DNA of 61,032 nucleotides from the NCBI GenBank assembly GCA_013154175.1, contig JAADCZ010000110.1:1-61032 (forward strand), given 5' to 3'. Made by a program: the position numbers and the translations under genes. Source of the DNA: Thermodesulfobacteriota bacterium. Lineage in GTDB: Bacteria; Desulfobacterota; Dissulfuribacteria; Dissulfuribacterales; QOAL01. The notes under the pieces are model-generated. The model ran no database searches. It was not told the DNA's origin and was given only the letters and a program-made list of their open reading frames with translations. Below are positions 12,171 through 50,210 of this stretch, one piece after another (the stretch's first letter is position 1; each line of letters opens with the position of its first letter).

Positions 12171-12199
12171 ATCTAACAGACTTGGAAAAGGAGACCTTC

Positions 12200-13117
12200 A
12201 TGAAGAAGACAAAATGGCTAGTAGTTTTACTGATTTTGTTTGCATCGTTCATCACCAACGCCCTGGCAGCAGACAAGGGGCAAGACAAAATATTGGCGCA
12301 GGTTGGAAAATACAAGCTCACACTCAAGGAGTTCAACGACCAGATACGCTCCCTGCCGCCTCAGCTTCAGATGGCTGTGCAAAGAAATCCTGAGCTCAAA
12401 AAACAGTTACTAGATCGCTGGGTACAACTGAACCTCATGGCCCTCGAGGCAAGGAAGCAGAAGTTGCAGGACAAGCCAGATGTGAAGAAAAGAATCGAGG
12501 AGATGACAAATGCACTCCTTGCCCAGGAATACATGATGGAAAACGTTTCTGACAAGGCAAAGGTGACAGACAAGGAGATCAAGGAATACTACGACAAGCA
12601 CAAGTCTGAATTCATGCAGCCAGAGCAGGTCCGGGCCCGCCATATACTCATCAAGGTGCCGGCCAATGCAACCAAGAAACAGTGGGAAGAGGCCAGAAAG
12701 AAGGCATTGGAGATTCGGGCCAAATTGCTCAAAGGCGAAAGCTTTGCAAAACTTGCCCAAAAATACTCTGACGATCCTGGCTCAAAGACCAGGGGCGGAG
12801 ACCTTGGTTATTTCCGCAAGGGCCAGATGGTTCCAGAGTTCGAAAAGGCTGCCTTCGCACTGAAAAAGGGCGAGATAAGTCAGCCCGTAAAGACGACCTT
12901 CGGCTATCACATCATCAAGCTGGAAGACAAGAAGCCTGCCAAACAGAGGTCCTTTCAGGAGGTTAAGCAGGAAATCAGACAGAAGCTCTTGCGCCAGAAG
13001 CAGATGGAGTTGAGAAACAAAATCGTTGAAAAGCTCCGCAAGAAATACCCAGTGAGCGTACATGAAGAGCTTCTGAACGCAGGAGCGACTGCTTCAGGTG
13101 GTTCCATGCCCCACTAA
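12200..13117 (+). CDS. Secreted parvulin-type peptidyl-prolyl cis-trans isomerase (SurA/PpiD/PrsA-like)
   Basis: It has a signal peptide ([19 protein letters not shown]) and a PpiC domain (RARHILIKV ... GGDLGYF ... FGYHIIKL). ATG 12200 follows AAAGGAGA. The track TTG 12182 is rejected. Confidence 0.9.
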
Positions 13118-19829: not shown

Positions 19830-20882
19830 ATGCACAAGGACGAAATCATCTGTACCATCCAAGGGGTTAGCAAGCTATACCGGGTAAAGAAGGGTTTTTT
19901 CTCCGCTAAGACCATGGAGATACAGGCCCTTGATAACGTTTCCCTCAAGGTTCGCAGACAGGAAATCCTGGGCCTCGTGGGCGAGAGCGGATGCGGCAAA
20001 TCCACGCTGGCCCGCCTCATCCTTGGCCTAGAAAAACCCAGCGCAGGAAAAATCAACTTTGAGGGCATCGATCTTTCTGCCCTCAAGGGTGACCATCTGA
20101 AAAGGTTTCGTAAAAAGGTCCAGATGGTCTTTCAGGACCCTTTTTCTTCACTGAACCCCAAAAAAACCATCTTTCAGATAATCAGCCAGCCCTTGAGGAT
20201 TCATGGCATTTGCCCTAGGTCTGAACTAAGAAGGGAAGTCAGACGTCTTCTAGAAATGGCGGGCCTGCACAACCCTGGCATTGAAAATCGTTACCCCCAT
20301 GAGTTCAGTGGAGGCCAGAGGCAACGCATTGGCATTGCAAGGGCCCTTGCCACACGCCCGGATCTCGTGGTGATGGACGAACCCACCTCTGCCCTGGATG
20401 TATCCATCCAGGCCCAGATTATAAACCTCATCCTGGACCTTCAGGAATCGAGAAACATTACCTGTCTCTTCATATCCCATGACCTGCCAATTGTTGAGTT
20501 CGTAAGCCACAGGGTTGCCGTGATGTATAAGGGTGCAATTGTGGAAATTATGCCAAAGGAACGTTTTGGCCTTGTGCAAAAGGGCCTGGACACGCCCCAT
20601 CACCCATACACGGACTTTTTGATGAAATCTGTACCAGTCCCCACTCCAGAAGCATCCATGTGTGGAACTGGCCAGACAGACCATGACCTTGAAGAACCTT
20701 TCGAGGTAAAATCATCCCGCTGGGACAATCTGAGTGGCTGCAAATTTTACCCTCGATGCCCCCACGCGACCCAAAAATGCAAGGATGAAAAGCCATTGCC
20801 AGTTGAAATTTCACAAGGACACACCATCTTCTGCCACCTGTTTACGCCTTCAGATAAGGAGCTAGGAACCAATGAAGTTTGA
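19830..20882 (+). CDS. ABC transporter ATP-binding protein, oligopeptide/dipeptide (OppF/DppF) type, no cognate permease nearby
   Basis: It has Walker A GESGCGKST, signature FSGGQRQR, Walker B LVVMDEPTSALD and H-loop FISHDL. The Cys-containing C-terminal extension (CKFYPRCPHATQKC) is typical of Opp/Dpp ATPases. Confidence 0.88.
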   Translation: MHKDEIICTIQGVSKLYRVKKGFFSAKTMEIQALDNVSLKVRRQEILGLVGESGCGKSTLARLILGLEKPSAGKINFEGIDLSALKGDHLKRFRKKVQMVFQDPFSSLNPKKTIFQIISQPLRIHGICPRSELRREVRRLLEMAGLHNPGIENRYPHEFSGGQRQRIGIARALATRPDLVVMDEPTSALDVSIQAQIINLILDLQESRNITCLFISHDLPIVEFVSHRVAVMYKGAIVEIMPKERFGLVQKGLDTPHHPYTDFLMKSVPVPTPEASMCGTGQTDHDLEEPFEVKSSRWDNLSGCKFYPRCPHATQKCKDEKPLPVEISQGHTIFCHLFTPSDKELGTNEV

Positions 20883-23274
20883 TGCAACCGTTACAGACCT
20901 CTTCGATCTGGATATACCTGAGAGCTACGAAATCCCGGAATGCCTGCCACTTATGGCCCTAAGGGACGTAATCGTATTTCCTTCAATGGTGGTGCCCCTG
21001 TTTGTTGGCCGCGAATCCTCCATTGCAGCGGTAAACGAGGCACTTACCAACGACAGACTCATATATCTAGTGGCGCAGAAGGATGCCCGAATCGACAAAC
21101 CCGGAGCAGACGACCTTTACCAGACAGGGGTCATAGCTGCGATAATGCGCACACTGCAGCTGCCAGATGGCAGACTCAAGATACTCACACAGGCACTGCT
21201 CAAGGGGCGCACCCTGGAAGTCGTGCAGGAACAGCCCTTTTTCAAGGTCAAGGTGGAACCCATTGAAGATGAGGAAGTGGAGATCTCTGTGGAAACCGAG
21301 GCCCTCATGCGCCACGTTCGCGAGCAGGCAGAGAAGCTTTTTAACATCAAGAACATCTTCAGCCCTGAACTGGGTATCATACTCAGCACAGTCAATGACC
21401 CAGGGAAGCTTGCAGACGTCGTGGCCTCGAACCTGAAGCTGAATGGTGCCGAGGCCCAGGAGATACTCCAGCTCTTTCACCCGATTGAACGGCTCAAAAA
21501 GGTCTCGGAGTTTCTGGCAAGAGAAATCGAGGTGTCGGCAGTACAGGCCAAGATCCAGTCTGAGGCCAGGGAGGAGATGAGCCGCACCCAGAGGGACATC
21601 TTCCTTAGGGAGCAACTCAGGGCAATCCAGCGGGAACTAGGAGAGATAGACGAGCGGCAAAAGGAGATCGAGGAGTACAAATCCCGGATAACCAAGGCGC
21701 TCATGCCAGAACATGCAGAGGAAGAGGCGCTGAAACAGCTAAAGCGTCTCGAGTTCATGCACCCTGATTCCTCTGAGGCTGCCCTTGTCCGTACATACCT
21801 GGACTGGCTCTGCGAACTGCCCTGGTCTGTCACCACTAGGGACAAGCTTGACATAAAACGGGCAAGAAAGATCCTGGATGAAGACCACTATGACCTCGAA
21901 AAGATAAAGGAACGCATAATCGAGTTTATTGCAGTAAGAAAGCTAAACAGGAGTGTCAAGGGGCCCATTCTCTGCTTCGTGGGGCCCCCTGGTGTTGGAA
22001 AGACCTCCCTTGGAAAATCCATAGCCAGGGCCCTTGGCAGGAAATTTGTCCGCCTCTCCCTTGGAGGCGTGCGGGACGAGGCAGAAATTAGGGGCCACAG
22101 GCGAACCTATGTGGGGGCCTTGCCAGGCAGAATCATCCAGGAGATGAAGCGTGCTGGCACGAGAAACCCTGTCTTCATGATGGATGAAGTGGACAAGATT
22201 GGGGCAGACTTTCGGGGTGACCCAGCAGCCGCGCTCCTTGAAGTCCTGGACCCTGAACAGAACAACGCCTTTTCTGACCATTTCATTGAGATTCCCTTTG
22301 ACCTGTCAAAGGTCCTCTTCATCCTTACGGCAAATGTTATCGACACCATACCATCCGCGCTCCTCGACAGGCTGGAGGTCCTCAGGCTGTCAGGGTACAC
22401 ACCAGAGGAAAAGCGCGAGATTGCAAAAAGGTATCTTATCGAAAGGCAGATGAAGGAATGCGGCCTCAAGCCCGGGCAGCTCGAGATATCAGACAACGCT
22501 CTTGATCGCATAATATCTGAATACACCGAGGAGGCGGGGCTCAGGGAGCTCGAAAGACAGATTGCTGCCATATGCAGAAAGGTTGCCTGCAAGGTGGCTG
22601 ATGGCAACTCAGGGCCGTTTCGGGTAACTGCAGGCAATCTTCACAAGTATCTTGGGCCTCCAAAGGTGCTGTCTGACTTCATTCGGGAAGACAGTCAGGT
22701 GGGTGTGGCCACAGGTCTTGCCTGGACAGCCTATGGTGGCGAGGTTATGCGCATCGAGTGCCAGGTAATGCCTGGCAAGGGCAATCTGACACTTACCGGA
22801 CTCTTGGGAGACGTGATGAAGGAGTCGGCCCAGGCAGCCCTTAGCTGGATAAAATCCAGGGCCAAGGAATTGAATATCAGGCCTGAAGACTTTGAGGAAA
22901 AAGACATACACATACACATCCCATCAGGGGCCATACCAAAGGACGGCCCTTCAGCAGGAATCACCCTGACCACGGCCCTGGTTTCGGCCTTTACCAAAAG
23001 GCCCGTAAACAAGGATGTGGCCATGACGGGTGAGATAACCCTCACAGGCAGAATCTTGCCAATAGGCGGTCTCAAGGAAAAATCCATTGCCGCCCTTAGA
23101 AAAGGCATCCCCACCATCATCATTCCTGAAAACAACCTCACGGACCTGGAAGAGATCCCTGAACAGATTAGGAAACGTCTGGAGTTCATCCCGGTGGTCT
23201 CTGTGGATCAGGTCCTGGAGCTGGCCTTGCTCCCGCCAGATGAGAAAAAAAGTGCCAAGGGGGAAGATAGCTGA
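20872..23274 (+). CDS. lon: ATP-dependent Lon protease
   Basis: 800 aa. It has a LON N-domain, Walker A GPPGVGKTS and the protease-domain serine motif PKDGPSAGI. It overlaps the ABC gene by 11 nt. Confidence 0.97.
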   Translation: MKFDATVTDLFDLDIPESYEIPECLPLMALRDVIVFPSMVVPLFVGRESSIAAVNEALTNDRLIYLVAQKDARIDKPGADDLYQTGVIAAIMRTLQLPDGRLKILTQALLKGRTLEVVQEQPFFKVKVEPIEDEEVEISVETEALMRHVREQAEKLFNIKNIFSPELGIILSTVNDPGKLADVVASNLKLNGAEAQEILQLFHPIERLKKVSEFLAREIEVSAVQAKIQSEAREEMSRTQRDIFLREQLRAIQRELGEIDERQKEIEEYKSRITKALMPEHAEEEALKQLKRLEFMHPDSSEAALVRTYLDWLCELPWSVTTRDKLDIKRARKILDEDHYDLEKIKERIIEFIAVRKLNRSVKGPILCFVGPPGVGKTSLGKSIARALGRKFVRLSLGGVRDEAEIRGHRRTYVGALPGRIIQEMKRAGTRNPVFMMDEVDKIGADFRGDPAAALLEVLDPEQNNAFSDHFIEIPFDLSKVLFILTANVIDTIPSALLDRLEVLRLSGYTPEEKREIAKRYLIERQMKECGLKPGQLEISDNALDRIISEYTEEAGLRELERQIAAICRKVACKVADGNSGPFRVTAGNLHKYLGPPKVLSDFIREDSQVGVATGLAWTAYGGEVMRIECQVMPGKGNLTLTGLLGDVMKESAQAALSWIKSRAKELNIRPEDFEEKDIHIHIPSGAIPKDGPSAGITLTTALVSAFTKRPVNKDVAMTGEITLTGRILPIGGLKEKSIAALRKGIPTIIIPENNLTDLEEIPEQIRKRLEFIPVVSVDQVLELALLPPDEKKSAKGEDS

Positions 23275-23275
23275 C

Positions 23276-24433
23276 ATGACACATGCAAGAGTCAACACAA
23301 AAAGGCTACAAAAACTCTTTATGGATCTCGTGCGTATCGACAGCCCCTCTAGGCACGAGGGGCAGGTGGCTGCATTCATAAGGGACTGGTTTCAGGCCAA
23401 CCTTCCTTCAGCAAAGATCCTCGAAGACGGCTCAGCAGTCGATACAGGCTCGGACACCGGCAATCTCATTATAAAGATCCCAGGGCAGAAAGAGGCAGAA
23501 CCCCTGTTTTTCAATGCCCACATGGACACAGTGGAACCAGGCAGGGGCATAAAGCCCATCTTTGAAAATGGTGTATTCAAATCCGATGGAACAACTGTAC
23601 TTGGCGGGGACGACAAGGCGGCCATTGCCATTATCTTGGAAGCTGTAATGTGTCTAAAGGAGGCGGCCATTGCCCACGGCCCCTTTGAAATACTCCTTAC
23701 CACCTGCGAGGAAATAGGGCTTCTTGGTGCAAAGGCCCTGGATGAATCCCTGCTTGATTCCAAGGCGGGCTATGCCCTCGACACAGAAGATCCGGATTCT
23801 GTGATTAATCGGGCCCCGGCTGCCATACGTTTTCATGCCAAAATCCATGGAGTTGCAGCCCATGCAGGCCTGAGCCCAGAAAAGGGCATGAGTGCGATAA
23901 AGGTGGCTGCAAAGGCCATCTCCCAGGCCCCCCAGGGAAGGATCGACCCTGAGACTACCTGCAACATTGGCCTAATAAAGGGGGGTACTGCCACCAACAT
24001 CGTTCCTGATCTGGTAACAGTGGATGGTGAAGTCAGGAGCCACCATCAGGACCGTCTGAAAAAACTGCAGGATGATATCCTTTCCTGTTTCTACAAGGCT
24101 GCAGACGATTTCAGAAGGGAGCCAGGAGACAAGTTTCCCTATGTTGCAGTCACAGTGGAAGATGACTATCCGGTCATGAATGTTCCAGAAGATCACCCGA
24201 TAATAAGGGCAGTGCTCCATGCTGGAAGGCGCCTTGATCGAAACCTGAGACTCGAGATGACAGGTGGTGGAAGCGATGCAAACATATTCAACAGCAAGGG
24301 GCTTGCAACTGCAATTTTGGGCATCGGGATGCAAAAGGTGCACACCACCGAGGAATTCATAAGGCTTGAGGATATGGAAAAAAGCTGTCTTCTGGCCGTG
24401 GAAATACTAAACACCTGGCCTTCAGAAACCTAG
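23276..24433 (+). CDS. M20-family metallopeptidase (peptidase T-like)
   Basis: Metal-ligand motifs are NAHMDTV, GGDDKAAIA and TCEEIGLLGA. ATG 23276 lies 1 nt after the lon stop. The track start at 23087 inside lon is rejected. Confidence 0.85.
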   Translation: MTHARVNTKRLQKLFMDLVRIDSPSRHEGQVAAFIRDWFQANLPSAKILEDGSAVDTGSDTGNLIIKIPGQKEAEPLFFNAHMDTVEPGRGIKPIFENGVFKSDGTTVLGGDDKAAIAIILEAVMCLKEAAIAHGPFEILLTTCEEIGLLGAKALDESLLDSKAGYALDTEDPDSVINRAPAAIRFHAKIHGVAAHAGLSPEKGMSAIKVAAKAISQAPQGRIDPETTCNIGLIKGGTATNIVPDLVTVDGEVRSHHQDRLKKLQDDILSCFYKAADDFRREPGDKFPYVAVTVEDDYPVMNVPEDHPIIRAVLHAGRRLDRNLRLEMTGGGSDANIFNSKGLATAILGIGMQKVHTTEEFIRLEDMEKSCLLAVEILNTWPSET

Positions 24434-24501: not shown

Positions 24502-27500
24502 CTAGTGGGCCATTTCGTTCAACGAAACCCCGATTATCGAATCCCCCTCCCCTGGTCGCCTGACCTTGCAAACAGAAACCCTTGATGTTTGCTGAAGCCA
24601 TTTGCACAAATCAACGGGTTTGTCTTCAAACCTTGGGGGCAGCCCAAGATCGAGGGCAAAGAGGCCAGAGACAACTGCAGTGGCCATGGAAGTTCCACTC
24701 AGAAAATTGTAATGCCCATCTGGTATGGTGGTGAGCAACTTTTCATGTGGGGCAAGGATATCCGCCTTTGAACACACCTTCCTGCTAGGATACATGGAAC
24801 CATCTTCCGAAAGACCACCAACGGCAATCACGTCCTTGAGGCGCGCAGGAAATGGCAGCTCCGCCACCTCTGGGTCGTTGCCCACAGGGGCGACAAAGAC
24901 CACACCCTTTCTTGCACCTTCAGAAATAAGTGGCTCAAGGGTCTTGTCATGGACATAGGCGCCAAAACTCATATTCACGACCTTGCTCCCATGTTCCAGG
25001 GCGTAGTCCAGGGCATCTGCAAGGGCATCGGTAAAGCACTGCCCCTTGGGGCTGTCGGGCCGGATCTGCCTGCAGGCCCTCAGGGCAAGGATGGCCACGT
25101 TCTGGGCAATGCCTTCCACGCCTTTACCATTTCGTTTGGCTCCAATTATTCCAGCTACTGCTGTGCCATGGATCTCTGGTTTGAACTGCTCTCCGTGAAT
25201 GAAGTTCTCCTTAAGGGAAATCGCCCCCTTCAGCTCTGGATGATTCACATCCACGCCTGTATCTATCACTGCCACCTGGGTCTTCTCCCCCTTTTCAAGC
25301 CTTCTTAAGGTTGAAATATCGAGCACGTCATAGATGGCCTGACGTTCCACAAGGGGATCTGCCGAGGAGGACAAGAGCGTGAAAATATAGTTGGGCCCTG
25401 CTGACTTGACAGCGGGTATCTTGCCTGCCTTCTTGATAATCTCTTCAACATCCTGCCCCTTCGTGGAAAAGACTCCCATCACCTTGCCCAGCATTCCCAA
25501 CTCGGTCTCATAGAGCAGTTTGATGCCAAGGCGCTTTTCAAGGGCCGAAGCCACTGAATCTCCAGCATCCTTCATCCAGGTGATAATCACCTGATTTGGG
25601 ACATAACTTCCCTTGTTATTCAACTTGAGCGTCCAAACAGGGCTTTTACCAATCAACTCGCCCCGCTTGCTAAAGCCCTTCACCTGCCAAAGGACCTTAT
25701 TGATGGATGAAAAATACCTGACAGCAATCTTGGCCGGGACCTTGTAATGGTTGGTTTTTACATAGGCGGAATAAAGGGGTTTGGACCTTTCACTTTCCCT
25801 GAATTCAATTAGGTAGGCGTAGAGGTTCCCCCCGCCAAGGGGCTTCCACTGAAAGGTAAGCCCTGGCAACGTGGTAGAACCACCATTCAAAGGCCTTACC
25901 AGCCTGATGGATTCCACATTGTAGGACTTGGCCCTTACAAAATAGACAGCCTGAGGCAATTCGAAGTCGAACTTAGGGGAAAGAATCACGAACCTTACTC
26001 TATGAACCCCTGGTTCGAATGTAGGTAGTGGCGTTGTTGCAGGAAGCTGCAGAACTATGCTTCTGCCATAGTTTATGTGCCTAAAGACAGTTGAAAGTGG
26101 TCGGCCATCCACCTCCCAGTAGCCCTTCAGCAACCCTGTGCCCGTATAACGAATTTCTGCAAAGAGCTTTGGTGAAGGCTGACCCTTGCCGATAGTGATT
26201 TCAGCCCTGTTATTTTCAAAGTATAACTGTAAACGTGAGATACTAAATGGAGCTGCCGCCTCTGTGGTTATGATTATCTCTACGTTTGCAGTGAGATCAA
26301 ACTGGGTGTTCGAAAATCTTCTGGTATAAAAAAACCTTGTCGTACCAAGCTTTTCCGCCCGTTTCAGCACGGAGACAGGTATCATAACCACTTCCCTTAC
26401 AGAAGCCCTGCCTCCCACGACGTGGGCGTAGAGGGCCTTTGAAACACTGCCAATGTCACGGCCTGCAGCTTTGAATGAACCACCACTCGAGGTCAAGTCG
26501 GTGGTTATGTCATGATCCCCTGAAAAGGAATAGACGAGTTCCATTTGAGAGGGCAAACCCCTTGGTATGGTGACGTGATTCGGGGTCACGATTACCGACA
26601 GGTTGCGTGGTTTGGGAGCACTTGCCACATTCAGGCTAAAGGTCCTCGTTGCACTCTGCCTTCCATAGGGGCAGGAGTCGGTGGCCACAAGGGTGAAGGT
26701 AAAGAGGCCTGAAGTGGTGGGTGTGCCGGTAATGAGCCCGTTTGATGAAAGGACAAGCCCTGGTGGAAGCTGCCCAGAGGCCAAAGATATGGTTACAGGT
26801 GACTGCCCCCCCGAGGTCGTGATGCGTGTTGAATATGGCTTTTGAACCTCGGCACCTGGTAAGGCGGAAGGTGTCGTAATGGTAAGTTCCGGACACGTGG
26901 TAACAGGTGGCGTTTCTTGCGGAGGCTGGGGCGGGCCCAATATGGTGATCTCAAAATTCTTCTGGATGTGCATCTTTCCCATTGGGCATGAATCAGTAGC
27001 CCGCACAATGAAAGAATATGTTCCTTCGACTGTGGGGATACCAGAGATTACCCCCTGGGAACTGAGAGAGAGCCCTGGAGGGAGCTGGCCACTGACCACT
27101 GAATAGTATATTGGTCGCTGGCCTCCTACCACCCTGAGGACCTGGTAATACTGTTTGCCCACTTCTCCTGTGGGAAGGGTTGAAGGGCTCGAGAAGCGAA
27201 GGGAGCCACACTTTACGAGCAATTCATTTTGCCCGTCGGGATATGGCGCAATTCTGTTGCACTTGCTTTGATTTACATAGGCATGAACAACATACTCTCC
27301 AGCCCTAAAATAGGTGTGGCTGACATAGACGTTACAAGTTTCTGAGCGACATACGGCCTTTCCGCTGGTTCCATCTCCATAATTTACAACTATTTCACAA
27401 TATACTGGTGGAGGACCAGTAGTTCCTGCAGCCATTAAGCTTGCCGAAATGCCTATGTTAACACGCTGACCAACCGAGGCAGGATTTGGATTCAAACTCA

Positions 27501-27576
27501 CTCCTAGGGCAAACAGGTACCCTTCTGTTATGAGCAACATTGCAAATGCCAATGTGACTATGAAAAATCTCTTCAT
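24502..27576 (-). CDS. Secreted multidomain subtilisin-like serine protease (signal peptide, PKD-like domain, 2x He_PIG-type Ig domains, beta-rich middle region, propeptide-like segment, C-terminal S8 domain)
   Basis: 1024 aa. The PKD-like segment is VNYGDGTSGK...SHTYFRAGEYVVHAYV. There are two repeats of the form SGQLPPGL.LSS.G.I.G.PT..G...F...ATDS. The S8 catalytic triad motifs are VAVIDTGVD, HGTAVAGIIG and SGTSMATAVVSG. Confidence 0.9.
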   Translation of the reverse strand: MKRFFIVTLAFAMLLITEGYLFALGVSLNPNPASVGQRVNIGISASLMAAGTTGPPPVYCEIVVNYGDGTSGKAVCRSETCNVYVSHTYFRAGEYVVHAYVNQSKCNRIAPYPDGQNELLVKCGSLRFSSPSTLPTGEVGKQYYQVLRVVGGQRPIYYSVVSGQLPPGLSLSSQGVISGIPTVEGTYSFIVRATDSCPMGKMHIQKNFEITILGPPQPPQETPPVTTCPELTITTPSALPGAEVQKPYSTRITTSGGQSPVTISLASGQLPPGLVLSSNGLITGTPTTSGLFTFTLVATDSCPYGRQSATRTFSLNVASAPKPRNLSVIVTPNHVTIPRGLPSQMELVYSFSGDHDITTDLTSSGGSFKAAGRDIGSVSKALYAHVVGGRASVREVVMIPVSVLKRAEKLGTTRFFYTRRFSNTQFDLTANVEIIITTEAAAPFSISRLQLYFENNRAEITIGKGQPSPKLFAEIRYTGTGLLKGYWEVDGRPLSTVFRHINYGRSIVLQLPATTPLPTFEPGVHRVRFVILSPKFDFELPQAVYFVRAKSYNVESIRLVRPLNGGSTTLPGLTFQWKPLGGGNLYAYLIEFRESERSKPLYSAYVKTNHYKVPAKIAVRYFSSINKVLWQVKGFSKRGELIGKSPVWTLKLNNKGSYVPNQVIITWMKDAGDSVASALEKRLGIKLLYETELGMLGKVMGVFSTKGQDVEEIIKKAGKIPAVKSAGPNYIFTLLSSSADPLVERQAIYDVLDISTLRRLEKGEKTQVAVIDTGVDVNHPELKGAISLKENFIHGEQFKPEIHGTAVAGIIGAKRNGKGVEGIAQNVAILALRACRQIRPDSPKGQCFTDALADALDYALEHGSKVVNMSFGAYVHDKTLEPLISEGARKGVVFVAPVGNDPEVAELPFPARLKDVIAVGGLSEDGSMYPSRKVCSKADILAPHEKLLTTIPDGHYNFLSGTSMATAVVSGLFALDLGLPPRFEDKPVDLCKWLQQTSRVSVCKVRRPGEGDSIIGVSLNEMAH

Positions 27577-27584
27577 GATGCCCC

Positions 27585-29504
27585 CTAAAACGTAAAGTTT
27601 ACGTTGGTGGTAAAATCAATCAGGACCATGAAAGAATCCTCACTCCTATCAAACACCCTATCATCCTGCCACGTATAACGCCCCCTGATGCCCACTGTTG
27701 GCTCCTCGATGAAATGTTTCCAATTTGGCATTATGCAAAAGGCGAGCCTAGTGTGGATATCTAGATTCTGCTGATCAACCGAATCGTCGTCGGCCTCGGT
27801 AATATTGTAGTTACCTGCAAAGGACCAAAGAACCTTGTCGGTCAATTGCCATTCCATGTCCCAATTGGCCATGTATGTATCTGTCTCAACATCTCTCAGG
27901 TGGGAAATGGATTTGTTGTAGCTGAAACTTGGATTGAACCTGAAGACATTTCCTGTGTAACCCGGGGCAAAAACAAATGTTATGGTGGCAGTGTCTCCGG
28001 ATACGTGCGCCTTGTCATTTTGATAGGAATAGGCAGTATGAAAATTGAGATTCCAGGCACCCTTTAGCCAAGAGACATCTGCCCCAACAGAATCTGTATC
28101 GAAATAGATTTCCGGGGTGTATTCAGGTTCATCAGTGCTGTTCTGGATGACTTTTTGATAGTAGATGGATATTGGTAGGTTAGGAAGTTTGTTCCAAGAA
28201 TATTTGACACCCCCTTGGATGTCATAGACCTTTGGATAGAGCTTGTTGTCCTTAACGTTGTCGTTATATCTTGAAAACATGAACTCGAAACGGTGAAAAC
28301 CAGAGGTTATCCAACTGGCAAGGGAAAACCCTTCTCTATTCTTTGGAAGCCCCTGATTGCCTATTACTTCATAGTCTGGCCCCATATATTCATAGGTGCC
28401 GGAAAAGCCATAAGTTGCATCGTCCCATGCCAGTGAGGCCCTGTACGCCTTGTCACTTTCAGGCCCAAACTCATCCTTGGTGCTTGCATCATACTCGGAG
28501 ATGTCATACTCGCCCGTTATACGAAGCCTTGAGTTGAACCAGTTGGACTCAGCAATAAAGCCCCCAACCTTGCCACGCCGCCTGTCTTCAACAGTTGAAA
28601 TTCCAAAGGAACTGCCTTCCTCACCACCCTTTGCATACATGGAGCGAAGGGTTACATGATTGTCTAGAAGACTTACTGTTCCAGAAACCCCGTAAAGCTT
28701 GTCATTTGGATCGATGTCAACACCCAGCCCCCCATGCAAGCCATAATATTGGGCAGTGTTGGTGGAGAATAGATGTAGGCCAAGGACCTTGTAATTTAAA
28801 AATATCTGTCCGCCCTTTCTGGCATAATTGTTCACTGTATTTTGGGACTCCGTGACGATTATGTCTCCAAGTTGAGAGTCCATTCGGAAGTCTCCCCTTT
28901 CATAAACAGACTCGAGGAGAAAGCTTATGAGGTCGAAACCCTTTTTCTCTGGATACTCGATTGGGTGATCCTGGTCCACATAACGCAGTTCACCTCTTGC
29001 TGAAAATGTCCAATAGTTGGTACTGACCCGGTTTTCGCTGGACCAGTCCCCATCAACCCTCGAGTTAGGCTGCTGAGGCATATCGTCCTTTCTAAGCACC
29101 ATCTGATAAGTCAGCCCTGTAGAATTTTTTGAATAAATCTCCTTAAAGGCCCTGGATTGGCGGGATTTGAATCCAAAAGCTTCTGTGTAATAGGCTCCGG
29201 CTTCGTTCTCCCAGCTGATTTCCAGGATGTGATCACCAGCCGGAAGTGGCAGTATGGGTCTGAAGGAGCAAATGCTCCCATTGCACTCGACCATTGCGGT
29301 AACATCTGTACCGTCAAGAAGTACCAACATATTGTTTTGAGCCCCATGATCCTCACATTTCCATTTAAAAACGGGGCGTTTACCAACAATAATTTTGTCC
29401 AGATTGGGGCTGAAAAGCTCAATCTGGCTAGCGTATGTAAGACCATTTACAAATATCATGAGAACACTTGCAAGCAATACGAGGTGTTTTTGCTTTTGAG
29501 TCAT
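27585..29504 (-). CDS. Large outer-membrane beta-barrel protein with an N-terminal soluble (Ig-like?) domain, family unknown
   Basis: 639 aa. It has a signal peptide (LVLLASVLMIFVNGLTYA), about 500 aa of alternating strand-like Y/G/N/D/S-rich sequence, and the terminal NVNFTF. The stop lies 8 nt before the protease ATG. Confidence 0.65.
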   Translation of the reverse strand: MTQKQKHLVLLASVLMIFVNGLTYASQIELFSPNLDKIIVGKRPVFKWKCEDHGAQNNMLVLLDGTDVTAMVECNGSICSFRPILPLPAGDHILEISWENEAGAYYTEAFGFKSRQSRAFKEIYSKNSTGLTYQMVLRKDDMPQQPNSRVDGDWSSENRVSTNYWTFSARGELRYVDQDHPIEYPEKKGFDLISFLLESVYERGDFRMDSQLGDIIVTESQNTVNNYARKGGQIFLNYKVLGLHLFSTNTAQYYGLHGGLGVDIDPNDKLYGVSGTVSLLDNHVTLRSMYAKGGEEGSSFGISTVEDRRRGKVGGFIAESNWFNSRLRITGEYDISEYDASTKDEFGPESDKAYRASLAWDDATYGFSGTYEYMGPDYEVIGNQGLPKNREGFSLASWITSGFHRFEFMFSRYNDNVKDNKLYPKVYDIQGGVKYSWNKLPNLPISIYYQKVIQNSTDEPEYTPEIYFDTDSVGADVSWLKGAWNLNFHTAYSYQNDKAHVSGDTATITFVFAPGYTGNVFRFNPSFSYNKSISHLRDVETDTYMANWDMEWQLTDKVLWSFAGNYNITEADDDSVDQQNLDIHTRLAFCIMPNWKHFIEEPTVGIRGRYTWQDDRVFDRSEDSFMVLIDFTTNVNFTF

Positions 29505-29524
29505 TACAAGCCATCCCCCACTTC

Positions 29525-30163
29525 TTAATAAGCAGGCGCCAAAAACTCCACCAGCCCTGATTCCCTTAAAATCTTTGCACTCTCCCTCTTTGGGACATGC
29601 ACCACAAAGAGATCCTTGCCAGTAGGTCCATCCACTATCTTCATGTGATGCTTCCTAAGAAAAGAGACGAGGTCATTAATTTTTGTCTCCCCTTTAAATA
29701 TTACGTTGTACTCCACTCCATTATTCACAGGGTTGTTGGACGTCATGGTTTCAAATCCAGAGTGCATACCCTGAAAATAAAGAAGGGCTAAGAACAACAC
29801 TACCGCCTGGGCAGCACACATGGCCCAGGCAAGCTGGGGCATTTGAAAAAATTCCCTCAATCTGTCCCAAAAACCAGGCTCACAGTCTTTGGAAGGCTCC
29901 TTGGCCAGAAACTGGCCGTCCACCCTTGTTTCCTCAAGCCCAATTTCTTGAGATATTCTTTCAAATATTTTTTCTGAGGCTGGTTCTACCTCTTTTTCAA
30001 GTGCCTCAAAGGCCTTTTTAATTTGTATAGCTTCACGAAGTTCCTGTTCCAGCTCCTGACTTTCCCTTAAAGCCTCCTCAAACCTGGCTGCCTCATCCTC
30101 TGATAAACGGTTGTTTATATAATCCGGTATTAAATCAATGAATTTGTCTAGCTTCTTGTCCAT
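29525..30163 (-). CDS. Putative membrane-spanning anti-sigma factor (non-zinc type)
   Basis: The gene immediately follows the ECF sigma stop (TGA TTG ATG). It has a helical N-terminal domain (LIPDYINNRLSEDEAARFEEAL) with no HxxxCxxC, one TM helix (LAWAMCAAQAVVLFLALLYF) and an extracytoplasmic domain of about 75 aa. Confidence 0.6.
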   Translation of the reverse strand: MDKKLDKFIDLIPDYINNRLSEDEAARFEEALRESQELEQELREAIQIKKAFEALEKEVEPASEKIFERISQEIGLEETRVDGQFLAKEPSKDCEPGFWDRLREFFQMPQLAWAMCAAQAVVLFLALLYFQGMHSGFETMTSNNPVNNGVEYNVIFKGETKINDLVSFLRKHHMKIVDGPTGKDLFVVHVPKRESAKILRESGLVEFLAPAY

Positions 30164-30166
30164 CAA

Positions 30167-30694
30167 TCAATCTTCCCTGCTCAGTTCTTGCTTAAGTGCT
30201 TTCTTAGCGTGATAAACCCTGGTTTTTACCGTATTCAAAGGTATTTTTAGCAAGTTTGAAATTTCCTCATATGGCAATTCCTCAAAAAATACGAGGTGCA
30301 AGACTTCCCTATGCTTAGGGGATAGCCTCTCGAGGCCCTTTTTTACCAGCTCGATATTGGCAAATTTATCCACAAAGCTTTCTGCTTCATTGCTCTTGAG
30401 TTCATAATGATCGTCAATATCATCAAATGTTCTATTCTTCTTCAAAAACTTAAATGACAAGTTCCTTGCAATTCCCAAAATCCAAGTAATGGCCTTAGAC
30501 CGGCCCTGAAATTTGGCAGCACTTTTCCATATCTCGATGAAGGTATCTGCCAATATGTCTTGAGCAGCAGTTTCATCTTTCACCAGACCGAGAATATAAA
30601 AATAAACCCGCTTGTTTATTTCCTTATAAAGTAAGCTAAAGGCCTCTCGATCCTTTAACGCTACTCGACGTATCAGATATTCAAGGTCCGCCAT
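30167..30694 (-). CDS. ECF-type RNA polymerase sigma factor (sigma-70 family, regions 2 and 4)
   Basis: 175 aa. The region 2 segment is AQDILADTFIEIWKSAAKF. The region 4 HTH segment is LPYEEISNLLKIPLNTVKTRVYHAKKAL. Confidence 0.9.
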   Translation of the reverse strand: MADLEYLIRRVALKDREAFSLLYKEINKRVYFYILGLVKDETAAQDILADTFIEIWKSAAKFQGRSKAITWILGIARNLSFKFLKKNRTFDDIDDHYELKSNEAESFVDKFANIELVKKGLERLSPKHREVLHLVFFEELPYEEISNLLKIPLNTVKTRVYHAKKALKQELSRED

Positions 30695-30878
30695 CTTTTA
30701 TCGTTCTCTATTGTGTTCCTTTTAATTTCTGAAAGGTTCAAAAAACTTAAATCAATTTTAGACCCCACGCCTTCTTCAGCCAAGTAATATTTGAATGCTC
30801 ATTCATTATCATCAACCTTTTTTAATTTAAATCTTTTCTCATGGATTAATCTGAAGAAAAAACGGCGGTGGAGAGAAG

Positions 30879-30909
30879 AAAAAAAGGACAGCACCAGGCT
30901 GTCCTTTTT
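30879..30909. terminator. Bidirectional-looking terminator hairpin downstream of the histone-fold gene
   Basis: AAAAAAA-GGACAGC-5 nt loop-GCTGTCC-TTTTT. On the minus strand it lies 24 nt after the stop of the 30933-31382 gene. Confidence 0.75.
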
Positions 30910-30932: not shown

Positions 30933-31382
30933 CTATATCATAAGATTCAGGATTCTTTCCGCCCTTTCCATATCATCCTTGGAAATAATCTTATCCTTTG
31001 GTGAAAACTCCTTGGTAATATTTGCCATTACGTAAATCAATGTTCCAGTCAGATCAGGCAATTTCTTCTCCAACTCCTCCTCGAGTGCATACTTGAGGGG
31101 CGGCAGGGTTGCCAAGTGATCCAAGATTGGCTGCAGCTCCAGCTCTTCCTCCAGATCCTTGAATTTTTGCATGGATTCCTTCATGGCTTTGGTAAGAGGT
31201 ACATCGCACATCCAGATGACGTCCCTATTGTTGTAACGGGCATTGCCCTCGGCAACCACCAGAAGATCGTACAGTTTCTGATCCACAACATCACTTATTG
31301 CCTTTACCTTGCTCTTATCTATTCTCAATCCGGCGGCCTTCTTGTAAAGGGCCTCGATTTTGTGCGCTCCGGTTACTGCCAT
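30933..31382 (-). CDS. Doublet histone-fold protein (DUF1931-like bacterial histone homologue)
   Basis: 149 aa. The first half aligns by eye to archaeal HMfB (IEALYKKAAGLRIDKSKVKAISDVV...AEGNARYNNRDVIWMCDV versus [25 protein letters not shown]...[18 protein letters not shown], HMfB recalled from memory). The second half repeats the helix-loop-long helix-loop-helix pattern. It has a strong RBS (GAAGGAGGAAAG) and its own terminator. Confidence 0.6.
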   Translation of the reverse strand: MAVTGAHKIEALYKKAAGLRIDKSKVKAISDVVDQKLYDLLVVAEGNARYNNRDVIWMCDVPLTKAMKESMQKFKDLEEELELQPILDHLATLPPLKYALEEELEKKLPDLTGTLIYVMANITKEFSPKDKIISKDDMERAERILNLMI

Positions 31383-47191: not shown

Positions 47192-48637
47192 TCAGAGGTT
47201 GGAAAGTTCGGACGTACTAATTTTTCTTGGCTTTTTCCTGAAACTTTCCGCCTCAAGCTCATGCCTTTCAAGGAGTTTGTAGAAATCTGCCCTGTAATAG
47301 CCGGCATGTTTGGCAGCAAGACTGATGTTCCCTTTGGTGATTTTCAGTAAATTCTCAAGATATTTCCTGGTAAACTCATATCGTGCTTCCTTAAGGGGCA
47401 CAACAGGAATTTTTGAAGTATATTCAGCAAGGGGAGTGGCAGCCAAGAGGGAGGAGCTCAAAATGTCTTCCTGGGCAATGGCCACAAGAAAGTCCACCAT
47501 GTTTTCAAGCTCCCTGACATTTCCAGGCCAATCATACATTCTGAAGGCATCGAGTATATCTTCATCGACCCAGTTGATGAGTTTCTTGGTCTTTTGCATG
47601 GCCTTTTTGAGAAAATGACCGAAAAGAAGGGGGATATCCTGCTTCCTCTCCCTTAGAGGCGGCATATGTATCGGAACGACATGAATCCTGTAAAAGAGAT
47701 CTTCCCTGAATTTCCCTTCAGCCACCATCTTCTTTAAGTCCTGTTTGGTGGCCACTATTAGCCGTACATCCACCTTTCGCACCCTGTCGCTACCCAGGGG
47801 CTTTACCTCTCCGGTCTCCAACACCCGCAACAATTTCGCCTGCATGGACTCGGCCATTTCCCCAACTTCATCGAGGAAGAGGGTTCCAGTGTCGGCAGAA
47901 GCAAACACTCCATTCTTGGAGCCCACGGCAGAGGTAAATGCCCCGCGGACATGGCCGAAAAGCTCATCTTCCAACAAGGATTCAGGGATTGCAGCGCAGT
48001 TTACGGCTATAAAGGGCCCCTTTGCCCTACCGCTATGCATGTGGATGGCCCTGGCAACCAACTCTTTTCCAGTCCCTGACTCTCCAAAGACAGCCACGGT
48101 GATATCGGTGGGAGCGACCTGGAGAATCTGTTTAAAAACAGATTTCATCTTGGGGCTTTTGCCAATAATCCCGCAAAATTCGCTCTTTCCATCGATTAAT
48201 CCTTCAAAATCATGCACTTTCTTAAGCAAGGATGTTTTTTCAAGGGCCTGTTCCAGTTTTACCTCCAACTCTTTGTGGTCAACTGGCTTTGTGACATAGG
48301 AGAAGGCCCCTGCCCTCATGGCCTCTACTGCCTGCTCTATGGTGCCAAAGGCGGTAAAGATTATGGTTTGCAAATATGGATTTATCTCCAAACACTTGGA
48401 CATAAGCTCCTGACCTGAAAGGTTTTCCATGCGCTGGTCTGTCAGGAGTATCTCAATGTCTGGATTTTCGGAAAAGATTTCTAGGGCCTCTTCTGGGTCC
48501 TGTGTTGCAATTACTTCATAACCCAACAGTTCAAGCCTAATTTTCATTACCTCTAGAATATTTTCTTCATCATCGACAAGTAAAATCCTGGCCTTTGTTT
48601 TGCGAATAATCTTTTTTTGTTGCTTTTCCTTTGTCAT
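47192..48637 (-). CDS. Sigma-54-dependent response regulator (NtrC family: REC, AAA+, Fis-type HTH)
   Basis: The REC domain starts ILLVDDE. The Walker A motif is GESGTGKE, and a GAFTGA-type loop is present as GAFTSA. The C-terminal HTH is GNISLAAKHAGYYRADFYKLL. Confidence 0.93.
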   Translation of the reverse strand: MTKEKQQKKIIRKTKARILLVDDEENILEVMKIRLELLGYEVIATQDPEEALEIFSENPDIEILLTDQRMENLSGQELMSKCLEINPYLQTIIFTAFGTIEQAVEAMRAGAFSYVTKPVDHKELEVKLEQALEKTSLLKKVHDFEGLIDGKSEFCGIIGKSPKMKSVFKQILQVAPTDITVAVFGESGTGKELVARAIHMHSGRAKGPFIAVNCAAIPESLLEDELFGHVRGAFTSAVGSKNGVFASADTGTLFLDEVGEMAESMQAKLLRVLETGEVKPLGSDRVRKVDVRLIVATKQDLKKMVAEGKFREDLFYRIHVVPIHMPPLRERKQDIPLLFGHFLKKAMQKTKKLINWVDEDILDAFRMYDWPGNVRELENMVDFLVAIAQEDILSSSLLAATPLAEYTSKIPVVPLKEARYEFTRKYLENLLKITKGNISLAAKHAGYYRADFYKLLERHELEAESFRKKPRKISTSELSNL

Positions 48638-48707
48638 ATGTACAACCCTATGTTAATTCCTTATCTTATAAATTATATCTATTGGCATTGAACGACAAAA
48701 AGTTAAT

Positions 48708-50210
48708 ATGAAAATCTTCGAACCATTTAGCCTATATCAAAAACTACTAGCTGGATATTTATTTCTCCTTTTCATTTTGATTGTTCCTTGCCTCTTTTCA
48801 CTCTATTCCATTTACAGAATAGAGGATACCATTTCTACATATTTTAAACGAAATCTTGAAATATCTTCATCCTTAGAAAATGCCAAAAATCTTGTGCCAT
48901 CTCTGGAGGCTGAAGCGAGGCGCCTGGTAATCTTGCACAAAAAGGACTCTCTAAAACAGGTCAAGCAGATTATCTCTAACCTCGAGCACAAACTTTCTCC
49001 TGACATTGCCGAAGATTCACCTCCTCTGAAAAAAAATCTAATAGAGTTTCAAAAAACGTTCCAATTGCTGAGAAAAATCATCATAAGTTATGAAAGAAAA
49101 ATCGGACGGCCAGACAAAGGCACCAAGGGACCAAATCTGTCAGATGAGGCCAGGGAGCAGGAGATCAAGGGACTTGCCTTCCATTTGATGGAGCTTTTGA
49201 AGAAGGCTGAAATTATCCAGAAAGTCAGCCTTAAAAAACGCTCCTTGGAGACTTCCAGGGTCATCAGCCAGGTGAAGGATGGAACCATCATTCTCATGCT
49301 CATTGCATTCATAGCTGCACTCTTTGTTCCTTGGGCACTATACATATATATCAAAAAGCCGATTCTCTATTTGCAGAAGGGCACCGATGCCATTGGAAGC
49401 GGAAATTTCGACCACCAGATCCCAGTCATAACCAATGACGAGTTGGGGGAACTGGCCAAGTCATTCAACAACATGGCCAAGAGCTTGAAGGAACTAGACA
49501 CATTAAAATCCGATTTCATCGCCGTGGCCAGCCATGAGCTCAAGACTCCACTAGCCGCCATGCTTGAAGCCACAAGACTTCTCAGGGAGCCAGATATTGG
49601 TGAACTGAATGACAGACAGGCAAAGCTCGTGGAGGTCCTCAATACCAGCATGGAAAAATTCAAGGCACTCATCGAGGAATTGCTCGATCTATCCAAGATG
49701 CAGGCTGGTCTTTTGAACCTAAACAAGAAATCGGTCTCTGTGGCAGAATTAATCGACACTGTCACGGAAAATGTTGCACCGCTTCTTTCTGCAAAAAACT
49801 TGGACATAATAATTGAAAATTCTGATAAAAATCTCAGGGTTAAACTAGATAAAAAACGAATGGAGCGGGTACTTTTAAACCTTCTCGACAATGCTATTAC
49901 CTTTAGCCCTAAGGGTAGTGCCATAAAAATTGCCGTTGATAAAAAAGTTGAAAAAAAACGTGCTTTCGTTCAAATAGCTGTTATAGACTCGGGACCTGGC
50001 CTTGAGCCAGACGAACATGCCCGAGTTTTTGAAAAGTTTTACCAAGCAAAGACTGCGCCAAGACAAAGTGGCAGTGGTTTAGGGCTCACCATTGCCAGAC
50101 AAATAATTTCAGCCCATGGAGGTAAAATTTGGATAGAAAGTCCGCCCCCAAAAGAGTTGGCAGTAACAGAGGGAAAAGGTACAGCCGTATTCTTATTATT
50201 GCCGCTCTAA
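48708..50210 (+). CDS. Membrane sensor histidine kinase (2 TM, HAMP, HisKA, HATPase_c)
   Basis: The H-box is ASHELKTPL, the N-box is LLNLLDNAITFS, G1 is DSGPGL and G2 is GSGLGLTI. It is divergent from the response regulator gene across a 70-nt spacer. Confidence 0.92.
   Translation: MKIFEPFSLYQKLLAGYLFLLFILIVPCLFSLYSIYRIEDTISTYFKRNLEISSSLENAKNLVPSLEAEARRLVILHKKDSLKQVKQIISNLEHKLSPDIAEDSPPLKKNLIEFQKTFQLLRKIIISYERKIGRPDKGTKGPNLSDEAREQEIKGLAFHLMELLKKAEIIQKVSLKKRSLETSRVISQVKDGTIILMLIAFIAALFVPWALYIYIKKPILYLQKGTDAIGSGNFDHQIPVITNDELGELAKSFNNMAKSLKELDTLKSDFIAVASHELKTPLAAMLEATRLLREPDIGELNDRQAKLVEVLNTSMEKFKALIEELLDLSKMQAGLLNLNKKSVSVAELIDTVTENVAPLLSAKNLDIIIENSDKNLRVKLDKKRMERVLLNLLDNAITFSPKGSAIKIAVDKKVEKKRAFVQIAVIDSGPGLEPDEHARVFEKFYQAKTAPRQSGSGLGLTIARQIISAHGGKIWIESPPPKELAVTEGKGTAVFLLLPL

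Follow-up and report, generated by a model that had tools for sequence, protein, structure and literature searches.

We analyzed a 61,032-nucleotide contig of a Thermodesulfobacteriota bacterium (JAADCZ010000110.1, hereafter the window) and describe here a four-gene block on its minus strand. The block encodes a sigma factor of the extracytoplasmic function (ECF) type, an anti-sigma factor, an outer-membrane beta-barrel protein and a 1024-aa secreted protein that combines immunoglobulin (Ig)-type domains with an S8 subtilase domain; the genes follow each other in this order with gaps of 3, 20 and 8 nt. By analyzing related loci, we found that the block consists of two linked sub-modules: (i) the barrel and a three-domain unit of its partner protein, named here MID, and (ii) the sigma factor, the anti-sigma and the S8 domain. 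Furthermore, sequence comparison suggests homology between the periplasmic domain of the anti-sigma and the prodomain of the co-encoded protease. We tentatively propose, at slightly less than an even chance, that the block is an autoregulated ECF operon with two coupled sub-modules, in which the S8 protease would act on the prodomain mimic of the anti-sigma and thus free the sigma factor.

Conservation of the block and its two sub-modules

The barrel-seeded genome scan returned 33 loci from Thermodesulfobacteriota, Desulfuromonadales, Desulfobacteraceae and Nitrospirota/Thermodesulfovibrionia, all of which were compared by tblastn and open reading frame (ORF) maps. The full four-gene set is present in approximately 20 distinct loci from metagenome-assembled genomes (MAGs) or metagenomes, which belong to Thermodesulfobacteriota, Desulfuromonadales and Nitrospirota, deep-branching bacteria of the sulfate-reducer type. 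In the barrel-seeded loci, MID is encoded by the next gene after the barrel in all contigs that are long enough to show it (the contig of locus L013 ends after the Ig domains of the partner), and the simplest partner consists of a signal peptide and MID only (~350 aa). A barrel gene was also found immediately upstream in all four loci that were seeded with MID alone.

The sigma factor and the S8 domain occur together in 19 loci, and no locus has the sigma factor without S8. The only exception to this association is L016, where S8 is found with no sigma factor within 8 kb. Seven to eight well-flanked loci with the barrel and MID carry neither the sigma factor nor S8. The two sub-modules are physically separated in four Desulfobacteraceae loci (L030, L031, L033 and L037), in which the genes for the sigma factor, the anti-sigma and an S8 protein lie on one strand and those for the barrel and a PKD-MID partner are transcribed divergently from the other. 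The anti-sigma-seeded scan of metagenomes (full-length alignment) yielded 24 loci; all those of sufficient length contain the sigma factor, the anti-sigma, the barrel and a partner with MID and S8, and none of the 24 provides a counter-example to the link between sigma factor, anti-sigma and S8. The sigma factor and the anti-sigma travel with the S8 domain and not with the barrel.

A preliminary description of the window, made from its sequence alone, had treated the four genes as a single unit, to be abandoned if the families were not co-conserved. The set recurs in both the barrel-seeded and the anti-sigma-seeded scans, and the block is indeed conserved, but it is a composite of two linked sub-modules. 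That description also coupled the barrel to a protease-adhesin, but the conserved partner of the barrel is MID, its unassigned beta-rich region, and not the protease. Other observations in that description are supported: all four ORFs were found on the minus strand at the positions it gave, the gap lengths read from the sequence are identical, and the proposed single transcript is backed by the tight gaps together with an ECF-type promoter upstream of position 30694.

Two side observations concern the distribution of the barrel and MID. A barrel and an Ig-MID partner also occur on a contig that bears the label of the spirochaete MAG Brevinema andersonii (L010, DYKD01000142.1). All other occurrences of the pair are in Thermodesulfobacteriota and Nitrospirota, and a binning error or a transfer possibly accounts for this one. 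In addition, extra paralogues with only the last two MID domains (D2-D3) were detected at 67-1362 and 14821-15585 in L016, 6695-7504 in L034 and 7019-7750 in L041. The presence of D2-D3 paralogues near the barrel locus suggests several alternative partners per barrel.

The anti-sigma sensor domain and the sigma factor promoter

The anti-sigma is composed of an anti-sigma domain (approximately aa 1-75), one transmembrane helix (approximately aa 112-131) and ~82 periplasmic residues; here and below, its residues are counted from a TTG codon at 30166, an alternative start that gives 213 aa and would abut the stop codon of the sigma gene. It matches zf-HC2 (24.5 bits over aa 9-35, without the His/Cys ligands) and the NCBIfam model NF052375 'antisigma' (E = 1.6e-8). 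The zinc ligands H-x3-C-x2-C are absent, there being no His or Cys in aa 1-90. A zinc-binding anti-sigma was thus rejected, with the zf-HC2 match reflecting helix similarity only, and the single-pass non-zinc anti-sigma anticipated in the preliminary description is confirmed.

The alignment of 22 anti-sigma orthologues revealed a conserved juxtamembrane motif, F-x-T-(L/M)-(S/T), followed by a C-terminal domain whose sequence pattern, which includes an invariant G-P, suggests a beta-alpha-beta-beta-alpha-beta unit. The chain ends 0-2 residues past the last strand, and the terminus is -AY or -LY in 13 of the 22 orthologues; the window protein ends in -AY. When each was scanned against Pfam, this domain matched PF22148, the Fervidolysin_NPro-like prodomain family, in 12 of 18 orthologues. 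In a ten-orthologue set PF22148 was the top match for every member (18.8-28.3 bits), seven of them reaching the gathering score of 21 bits (21.6-28.3 bits), and the best match has an E-value of 2.3e-6 (28.3 bits). The anti-sigma matches cover positions ~20-79 of the 81-position profile, and the next-best Pfam families have E-values of ~0.04 or worse, approximately three to four orders of magnitude weaker for the top-scoring orthologues. The prodomains of the partner proteases match the same family in 8 of 10 orthologues (12.8-38.7 bits). No match was obtained for a profile of the anti-sigma C-terminal domain against PDB sequences. We also considered the SEAL domain, an autoproteolytic juxtamembrane domain of RsgI that is largely found in Firmicutes and has an Asn-Pro cleavage hairpin (PMC10556640). 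This identity was dropped, as no such motif is present in the anti-sigma. The searchable literature contained no paper on an anti-sigma with a subtilase-prodomain sensor.

The sigma factor possesses only regions sigma2 and sigma4 (Sigma70_r2, 43.9 bits; Sigma70_r4_2, 47.9 bits in Pfam) and passes the sigma70-ECF model TIGR02937 with 83.7 bits against a cut-off of 42.9. It belongs to the ECF (group IV) sigma-70 factors, in agreement with its initial identification, and reaches no NCBIfam equivalog (best NF009168, 141.7 bits vs a cut-off of 236).

A candidate promoter motif was found before the sigma gene in all 21 sigma-bearing loci. It starts with TGAAC(C/T), in most cases extended by TT(T), and after a spacer ends with (C/G)(C/A)AC; it can be written as TGAACC-N16-(C/G)(C/A)AC or as TGAACC(T)TT-N13-(C/G)(C/A)AC. 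Outside the motif, the intergenic sequences of distant loci cannot be aligned. An ECF promoter of the GGAAC-CGT type had been expected upstream of 30694. The predicted promoter is there, with TGAACC, an element of the AAC type, instead of GGAAC at -35 and xxAC instead of CGT at -10. In approximately 15 relatives the sigma ATG lies 2-4 nt past the -10 element (e.g. GCCACTTATG), which implies that the sigma mRNAs would be leaderless in most distant relatives. Such short leaders were noted at L001 6556-6590, L015 6748-6780, L030 3510-3480 and in ~12 other loci; in the clade of the window (L005-L009) the sigma leader is ~20 nt.

In the relatives, the motif also precedes neighbouring genes for small secreted proteins, namely CARDB and TIG proteins, Ig proteins of the Kre9-like type, a Gly/Thr repeat protein and paralogues that consist of MID only. 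Further copies are located before small secreted CARDB/TIG/Ig-like genes in L001 (12817, 15559), L014 (5716, 7152, 8327), L030 (10441, 11157), L031 (4205, 12230) and L032 (12551), which would make up a local regulon of beta-sandwich proteins of the surface or envelope. The MID partner gene is itself directly preceded by the motif in L033 and L037, with a TGAACC box at the matching position in L030, and in L016 the motif precedes the MID-only partner gene. The window has a single copy of the motif, before the sigma gene, and no local regulon copies like those of the relatives. Thus, the sigma factor is predicted to control its own gene along with a few proteins of the envelope or surface. In Thermodesulfobacteriaceae loci, the S8 gene is immediately followed by a variant promoter, TGAACCAAAAAGCC...GGCACTAA (L022 4300-4750, L025 7726-8050 and L026 8996-9530), which precedes the gene of a small secreted protein made of tandem TGTGYREATGVNF-type repeats.

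The barrel, its partner and the genomic surroundings

The AlphaFold2 (AF2) model of the barrel protein, built from a 51-sequence alignment, has a predicted local distance difference test score (pLDDT) of 88.6 and a predicted template modelling score (pTM) of 0.71. It consists of a signal peptide, an Ig-like domain (aa 28-115), a linker of ~6 residues and 26 antiparallel strands (aa 122-638), with no inserted plug and with extracellular loops of at most 19 aa. The soluble N-terminal domain followed by a ~500-aa barrel ending in NVNFTF, as first described, is therefore borne out. The same is true of the absence of a plug and a TonB box, on the evidence of the model and of domain scans, since Plug, TonB_dep_Rec and STN were not detected at E < 0.1 in Pfam and NCBIfam. 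Profile searches of the barrel protein against Pfam, NCBIfam and PDB sequences produced no match. The structural search that had been advised for the barrel returned generic large barrels only: the best Foldseek TM-score, 0.40, was to the 26-strand MtrB (6r2q_B), and the other matches include FimD (top by E-value), SlpA, TonB-dependent receptors, AlgE and LptD. Because the TM-scores are 0.40 or less, the barrel is not assigned to any well-characterised family. All members of the family come from MAGs or metagenomes and form 79 clusters at 90% identity; the N-terminal domain has invariant D64, D67 and H92, which are equally conserved in loci without the sigma factor and anti-sigma.

Several known classes were rejected for the barrel. 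A TonB-dependent transducer is at odds with the missing Plug, TonB box and STN and with 26 strands vs 22. The MtrB/PioB porins share with it only the strand number and the TM-score of 0.40; there is no MtrB_PioB or TIGR03509 match, and the neighbouring genes in the loci encode no cytochromes. A chaperone-usher usher was discarded as no Usher/PapC match was found, the strands are continuous without an inserted domain and no chaperone gene was detected in the loci. An autotransporter or two-partner secretion (TPS) translocator does not fit a separate 26-strand barrel protein with no POTRA, Autotransporter or ShlB match.

The 1024-aa partner begins with a variable Ig array. The PKD-like domain, the two He_PIG domains and the S8 protease had all been proposed for this protein; He_PIG (79.3 bits in two stretches) and S8 hold up in Pfam, but the PKD-like domain is weakly supported, with a score of 18 bits that is below the cut-off. 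Among the orthologues, the number of PKD/He_PIG copies varies from 0 to ~6. The array is followed by MID, whose AF2 model (pLDDT 91.6) comprises three tandem beta-sandwich domains at residues 1-113, 121-224 and 231-329 of the unit. MID has no match in Pfam, and Foldseek returned only Ig, FN3 and macroglobulin (MG) arrays, without a functional lead; the family comprises 426 clusters at 50% identity (E < 1e-30). An LptE-like lipoprotein was rejected as a model for the partner, since a lipobox-like string occurs by chance in only 4 of 77 partners. The S8 domain scores 118.8 bits against Peptidase_S8 PF00082 (E = 3.6e-34), and its PDB matches include AK.1 protease and thermitase. The catalytic D772, H803 and S963 and the oxyanion N868 are invariant in 61 of 61 orthologues and follow the subtilase order, which points to an intact, putatively active subtilase.

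Coordinates of the module, its predicted domains and its control elements in the window
Feature	Position	Strand	Basis or remark
Intrinsic terminator of the DUF1931 gene; 5' module boundary	30881..30909	-	12-bp stem, then T run
Predicted autoregulatory ECF promoter	30712..30740	-	-35 TGAACC 30740-30735, 16-nt spacer, -10 GAAC(A) 30718-30714; ATG 30694
ECF sigma factor, 175 aa	30167..30694	-	Sigma70_r2 + Sigma70_r4_2
Single-pass non-zinc anti-sigma, class-I-type, 212 aa from ATG	29525..30163	-	
Anti-sigma periplasmic C-terminal domain, aa 137-213, ~75 aa	29528..29758	-	Putatively PF22148 (Fervidolysin_NPro-like), from orthologue matches
Outer-membrane barrel protein, 639 aa, ends NVNFTF	27585..29504	-	
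Barrel protein, Ig-like N-terminal domain, aa 28-115	29160-29423	-	AF2
Barrel protein, 26-strand beta-barrel, aa 122-639, C-terminal F	27588-29141	-	AF2
Secreted multidomain partner/protease, 1024 aa	24502..27576	-	Type-I signal peptide, without lipobox
Partner, variable N-terminal Ig array: PKD-like aa 24-120, two He_PIG aa 121-324	26605..27507	-	
Partner, MID unit, aa 325-655, three tandem beta-sandwich domains	25612..26604	-	AF2
Partner, own prodomain of the protease (Fervidolysin_NPro-like) + linker	25327..25611	-	PF22148 19.7 bits at aa 651-729
Partner, S8 subtilase catalytic domain	24505..25326	-	D772, H803, N868, S963

The block is delimited on both sides, because a strong terminator lies upstream, between the DUF1931 ORF and the sigma promoter, and the gene beyond 24502 is convergent. 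The gene of the DUF1931 protein (30933-31382, minus strand; Pfam E = 6.8e-49) is located directly upstream of the module, and it is not conserved beside the module in other loci. The surrounding neighbours are housekeeping genes (hrcA/dnaK, lon, tatC, ackA). An M20/M28-type peptidase gene (23087-24433, plus strand) was delineated mechanically from a TTG codon and in this form its beginning overlaps with the end of lon (20872-23274). In the public annotation it has 385 aa, and the true start is probably an internal Met. Elsewhere in the window are a gene for a SurA-like periplasmic peptidyl-prolyl isomerase chaperone, an outer-membrane-protein biogenesis factor with no established link to the module (12182-13117, plus strand), and a gene for a sigma-54-dependent response regulator (47192-48637, minus strand) divergent from that of a HAMP histidine kinase (48708-50210, plus strand). 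The latter pair (47192-50210) lies in an AT-richer part of the window with a GC content of ~0.42. The window is a chromosomal segment from an uncultured, deltaproteobacterium-like organism; its sequence comes from JGI metagenome 3300005095 and recurs in a hydrothermal-vent metagenome run.

Proposed mechanism, rival explanations and known systems

Subtilase prodomains are tightly bound by their cognate catalytic domain, which then degrades them. For the anti-sigmas of ECF factors, a common route of inactivation is a site-1 cut in the periplasmic domain, after which intramembrane proteolysis takes place. From this background and from the architecture and conservation of the module, which are solid, we infer the following mechanism. 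The Sec system would export a rod of Ig-like domains, in which MID is the dedicated partner of the barrel. With the barrel as its anchor or passage, this rod would hold the variable PKD/He_PIG array out from the cell, while the S8 catalytic domain would autoprocess and leave its own prodomain. The mature S8 would dock on the anti-sigma's prodomain mimic and degrade it, which would constitute the site-1 cut, and a site-2 protease together with cytoplasmic proteases would remove the remaining anti-sigma. The freed sigma factor would transcribe its own operon from TGAACC-N16-GAAC, providing positive feedback, and in relatives it may also transcribe the neighbouring small secreted CARDB/TIG/Ig genes. 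A proteolytic input acting on the anti-sigma was one of two hypotheses raised at the outset; it gains unexpected support from the apparent homology of the anti-sigma sensor to the protease prodomain.

The other hypothesis, a barrel that would serve as an anchor or pore for the Ig-protease, is plausible. An unoccupied lumen is unlikely because the barrel has 26 strands, loops of at most 19 aa and no plug. These same properties, taken with the strict pairing with MID, argue that the lumen is occupied or capped, and by analogy with MtrAB, LptDE or a pilin-engaged usher this role may belong to the MID partner. An external location of the N-terminal array is favoured because arrays of up to ~9 Ig domains are hard to fit in the periplasm.

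Several points weigh against the proposed cleavage of the anti-sigma. The association of the sigma factor with S8 (Fisher p = 9e-6) is not corrected for phylogeny, and several of the loci are near-duplicates. The PF22148 scores of the anti-sigma domains are close to the gathering cut-off, and the window domain on its own, which has 21-48% identity to the orthologues that match, gives no significant match. When the C-terminal domains were aligned with the partner prodomains by hhalign, the probability was 1.6% at default and 15% at permissive settings (the permissive alignment places the terminal -AY of the anti-sigma on the prodomain -PNY, in the expected register), and hidden Markov model cross-searches between the two sets were not significant. 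Because these comparisons are weak, it is the Pfam profile that supports the prodomain link. Where the prodomain core ends, the anti-sigma domain ends as well, without the tail that normally enters the active site, and therefore binding may not give cleavage. The S8 domain is putatively located in the periplasm or on the surface, and a fully surface-exposed S8 cannot reach the anti-sigma. Finally, a transcript search showed that the runs containing the window sequence are DNA runs only.

The near-threshold scores and the weak direct alignment with the partner prodomain are what would be expected if the anti-sigma sensed an unrelated envelope cue through a generic beta-alpha-beta-beta-alpha-beta sensor not linked to the protease. 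The barrel, the Ig-protease and the CARDB proteins would then be regulon products only, forming a surface protease and adhesin set, and it is indeed downstream of ECF promoters that the S8, barrel and secreted Ig/CARDB genes are found. We regard this explanation as a serious candidate, although somewhat unlikely. It leaves unexplained that the sigma factor and anti-sigma occur only where the S8 domain is present, while barrel and MID are freely found without either, and that, of all Pfam families, the sensor matches just the one to which the prodomain of the co-encoded protease belongs. This evidence from domains and co-occurrence could, on the other hand, reflect a protective or homeostatic function, in which the prodomain-like domain of the anti-sigma binds stray periplasmic S8 as a tethered inhibitor or holdase and the anti-sigma is stabilised. 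The sigma factor would be active when S8 is absent or exported, which amounts to negative feedback on protease supply. According to PMC11637429, shielding of an anti-sigma from proteolysis by its partner has a precedent in TonB-dependent transducer signalling. A domain devoid of the active-site tail is also suited to binding without cleavage, but subtilases are well established to degrade free cognate prodomains in general, and we consider such protection unlikely.

The remaining explanations assign a larger role to the barrel. It can be speculated that the Ig rod spans the outer membrane via the barrel, with the array outside, MID in the lumen and the prodomain and S8 in the periplasm, and thus operates as a trans-envelope contact sensor or mechano-sensor. 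A ligand or a pull on the array would drag the tethered prodomain off S8, and the freed S8 would be captured by the mimic and destroy the anti-sigma. If true, such a sensor, which we find distinctly doubtful, needs neither TonB nor a phosphorelay. We assign an even smaller probability to a nutrient module resembling a polysaccharide utilization locus (PUL), where a surface S8 would digest extracellular protein, the wide barrel would import peptides and the Ig/MID rod would be a substrate-binding lid. The architecture does parallel ECF-regulated SusC/SusD-type loci, the protease appears catalytically intact and the source is a hydrothermal-vent-type metagenome. However, half of the barrel and MID loci are without any protease, no TonB energy coupling is seen, and the neighbouring regulon genes are of the CARDB/Ig structural type rather than transporters or peptidases. 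The least probable explanation, to which we give very little credence, is a TonB-independent form of cell-surface signalling, where the Ig-like N-terminal domain of the barrel contacts the anti-sigma directly, as in FecA/FecR. The order of sigma factor, anti-sigma and barrel with an N-terminal extension resembles FecIRA and the PUL regulators of Bacteroidetes, but there is no Plug, TonB_dep_Rec or STN match, and the N-terminal domain with its D64, D67 and H92 is equally conserved in the loci that lack the sigma factor and anti-sigma. In addition, the ~6-residue linker and the ~82 periplasmic residues of the anti-sigma would be too short to span the periplasm, and the L030-L037 barrel gene is divergent and has no ECF promoter.

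The preliminary description had seen no named counterpart of the module, and we likewise found none. The ECF sigma factor, the class-I anti-sigma, the S8 subtilase with a PF22148 prodomain and the Ig-type domains are of known kinds, and the barrel family, the MID family, their strict pairing and an anti-sigma that is fused to a protease-prodomain homologue appear to be undescribed. ECF sigma factors are a major and very diverse mode of bacterial signal transduction, and for most groups the input mechanism is unknown. An anti-sigma sensor that copies the prodomain, if true, would represent a new logic of site-1 recognition, in which a protease recognises its own pro-piece. The barrel and MID define two sizeable unnamed families and may add another example to the 26-strand barrels that have a partner protein of their own; their hosts are uncultured sulfate-reducer and Nitrospirota lineages whose envelope biology is almost unexplored. 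The conserved promoter provides a handle for regulon prediction in these genomes.

Among known regulatory systems, the module is closest in outline to RseA/DegS, RsiW/PrsW and MucA/AlgW, which have a membrane anti-sigma whose periplasmic domain is, as would presumably be the case here, removed by a site-1 serine protease; algU-mucABCD likewise has a protease gene, mucD, within the sigma operon. In contrast to RseA/DegS, RsiW/PrsW and MucA/AlgW, the candidate site-1 enzyme here is an S8 subtilase and not an S1C, S41 or PrsW-type protease, and recognition would rest on a copy of the prodomain fold of the protease carried by the anti-sigma, for which the searchable literature showed no precedent. 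The gene order of FecA-FecR-FecI and of the Bacteroidetes SusC-like transducers is similar, with a sigma factor, an anti-sigma, a barrel that is extended at its N-terminus and then a surface protein. The barrel described here differs from theirs in having no plug, TonB box or STN, in its 26 rather than 22 strands and in an Ig-like N-terminal domain that is kept irrespective of the sigma factor.

With MtrB-MtrA/MtrC (6R2Q) and LptD-LptE the barrel has in common 26 strands, a dedicated co-encoded soluble partner and short loops unable to close the lumen, whereas sequence homology to MtrB or LptD is not detectable, and the partner, which would occupy the lumen, is an Ig-like string instead of a multihaem cytochrome or a lipoprotein plug. 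The ushers FimD/PapC are also large barrels able to hold a folded Ig-like domain, with a periplasmic N-terminal domain and Ig-fold cargo; in contrast to them, the module has no mid-barrel plug, C-terminal domains or chaperone gene, and a single multidomain polypeptide takes the place of polymerising pilins as cargo. Finally, the protease shares with the fervidolysin S8 subtilases (PF22148; PDB 1R6V) the catalytic and prodomain families and the presence of beta-sandwich domains alongside the catalytic domain. It differs from fervidolysin in being fused behind a barrel-associated Ig rod and in the second, free-standing copy of the prodomain fold that the anti-sigma appears to carry.

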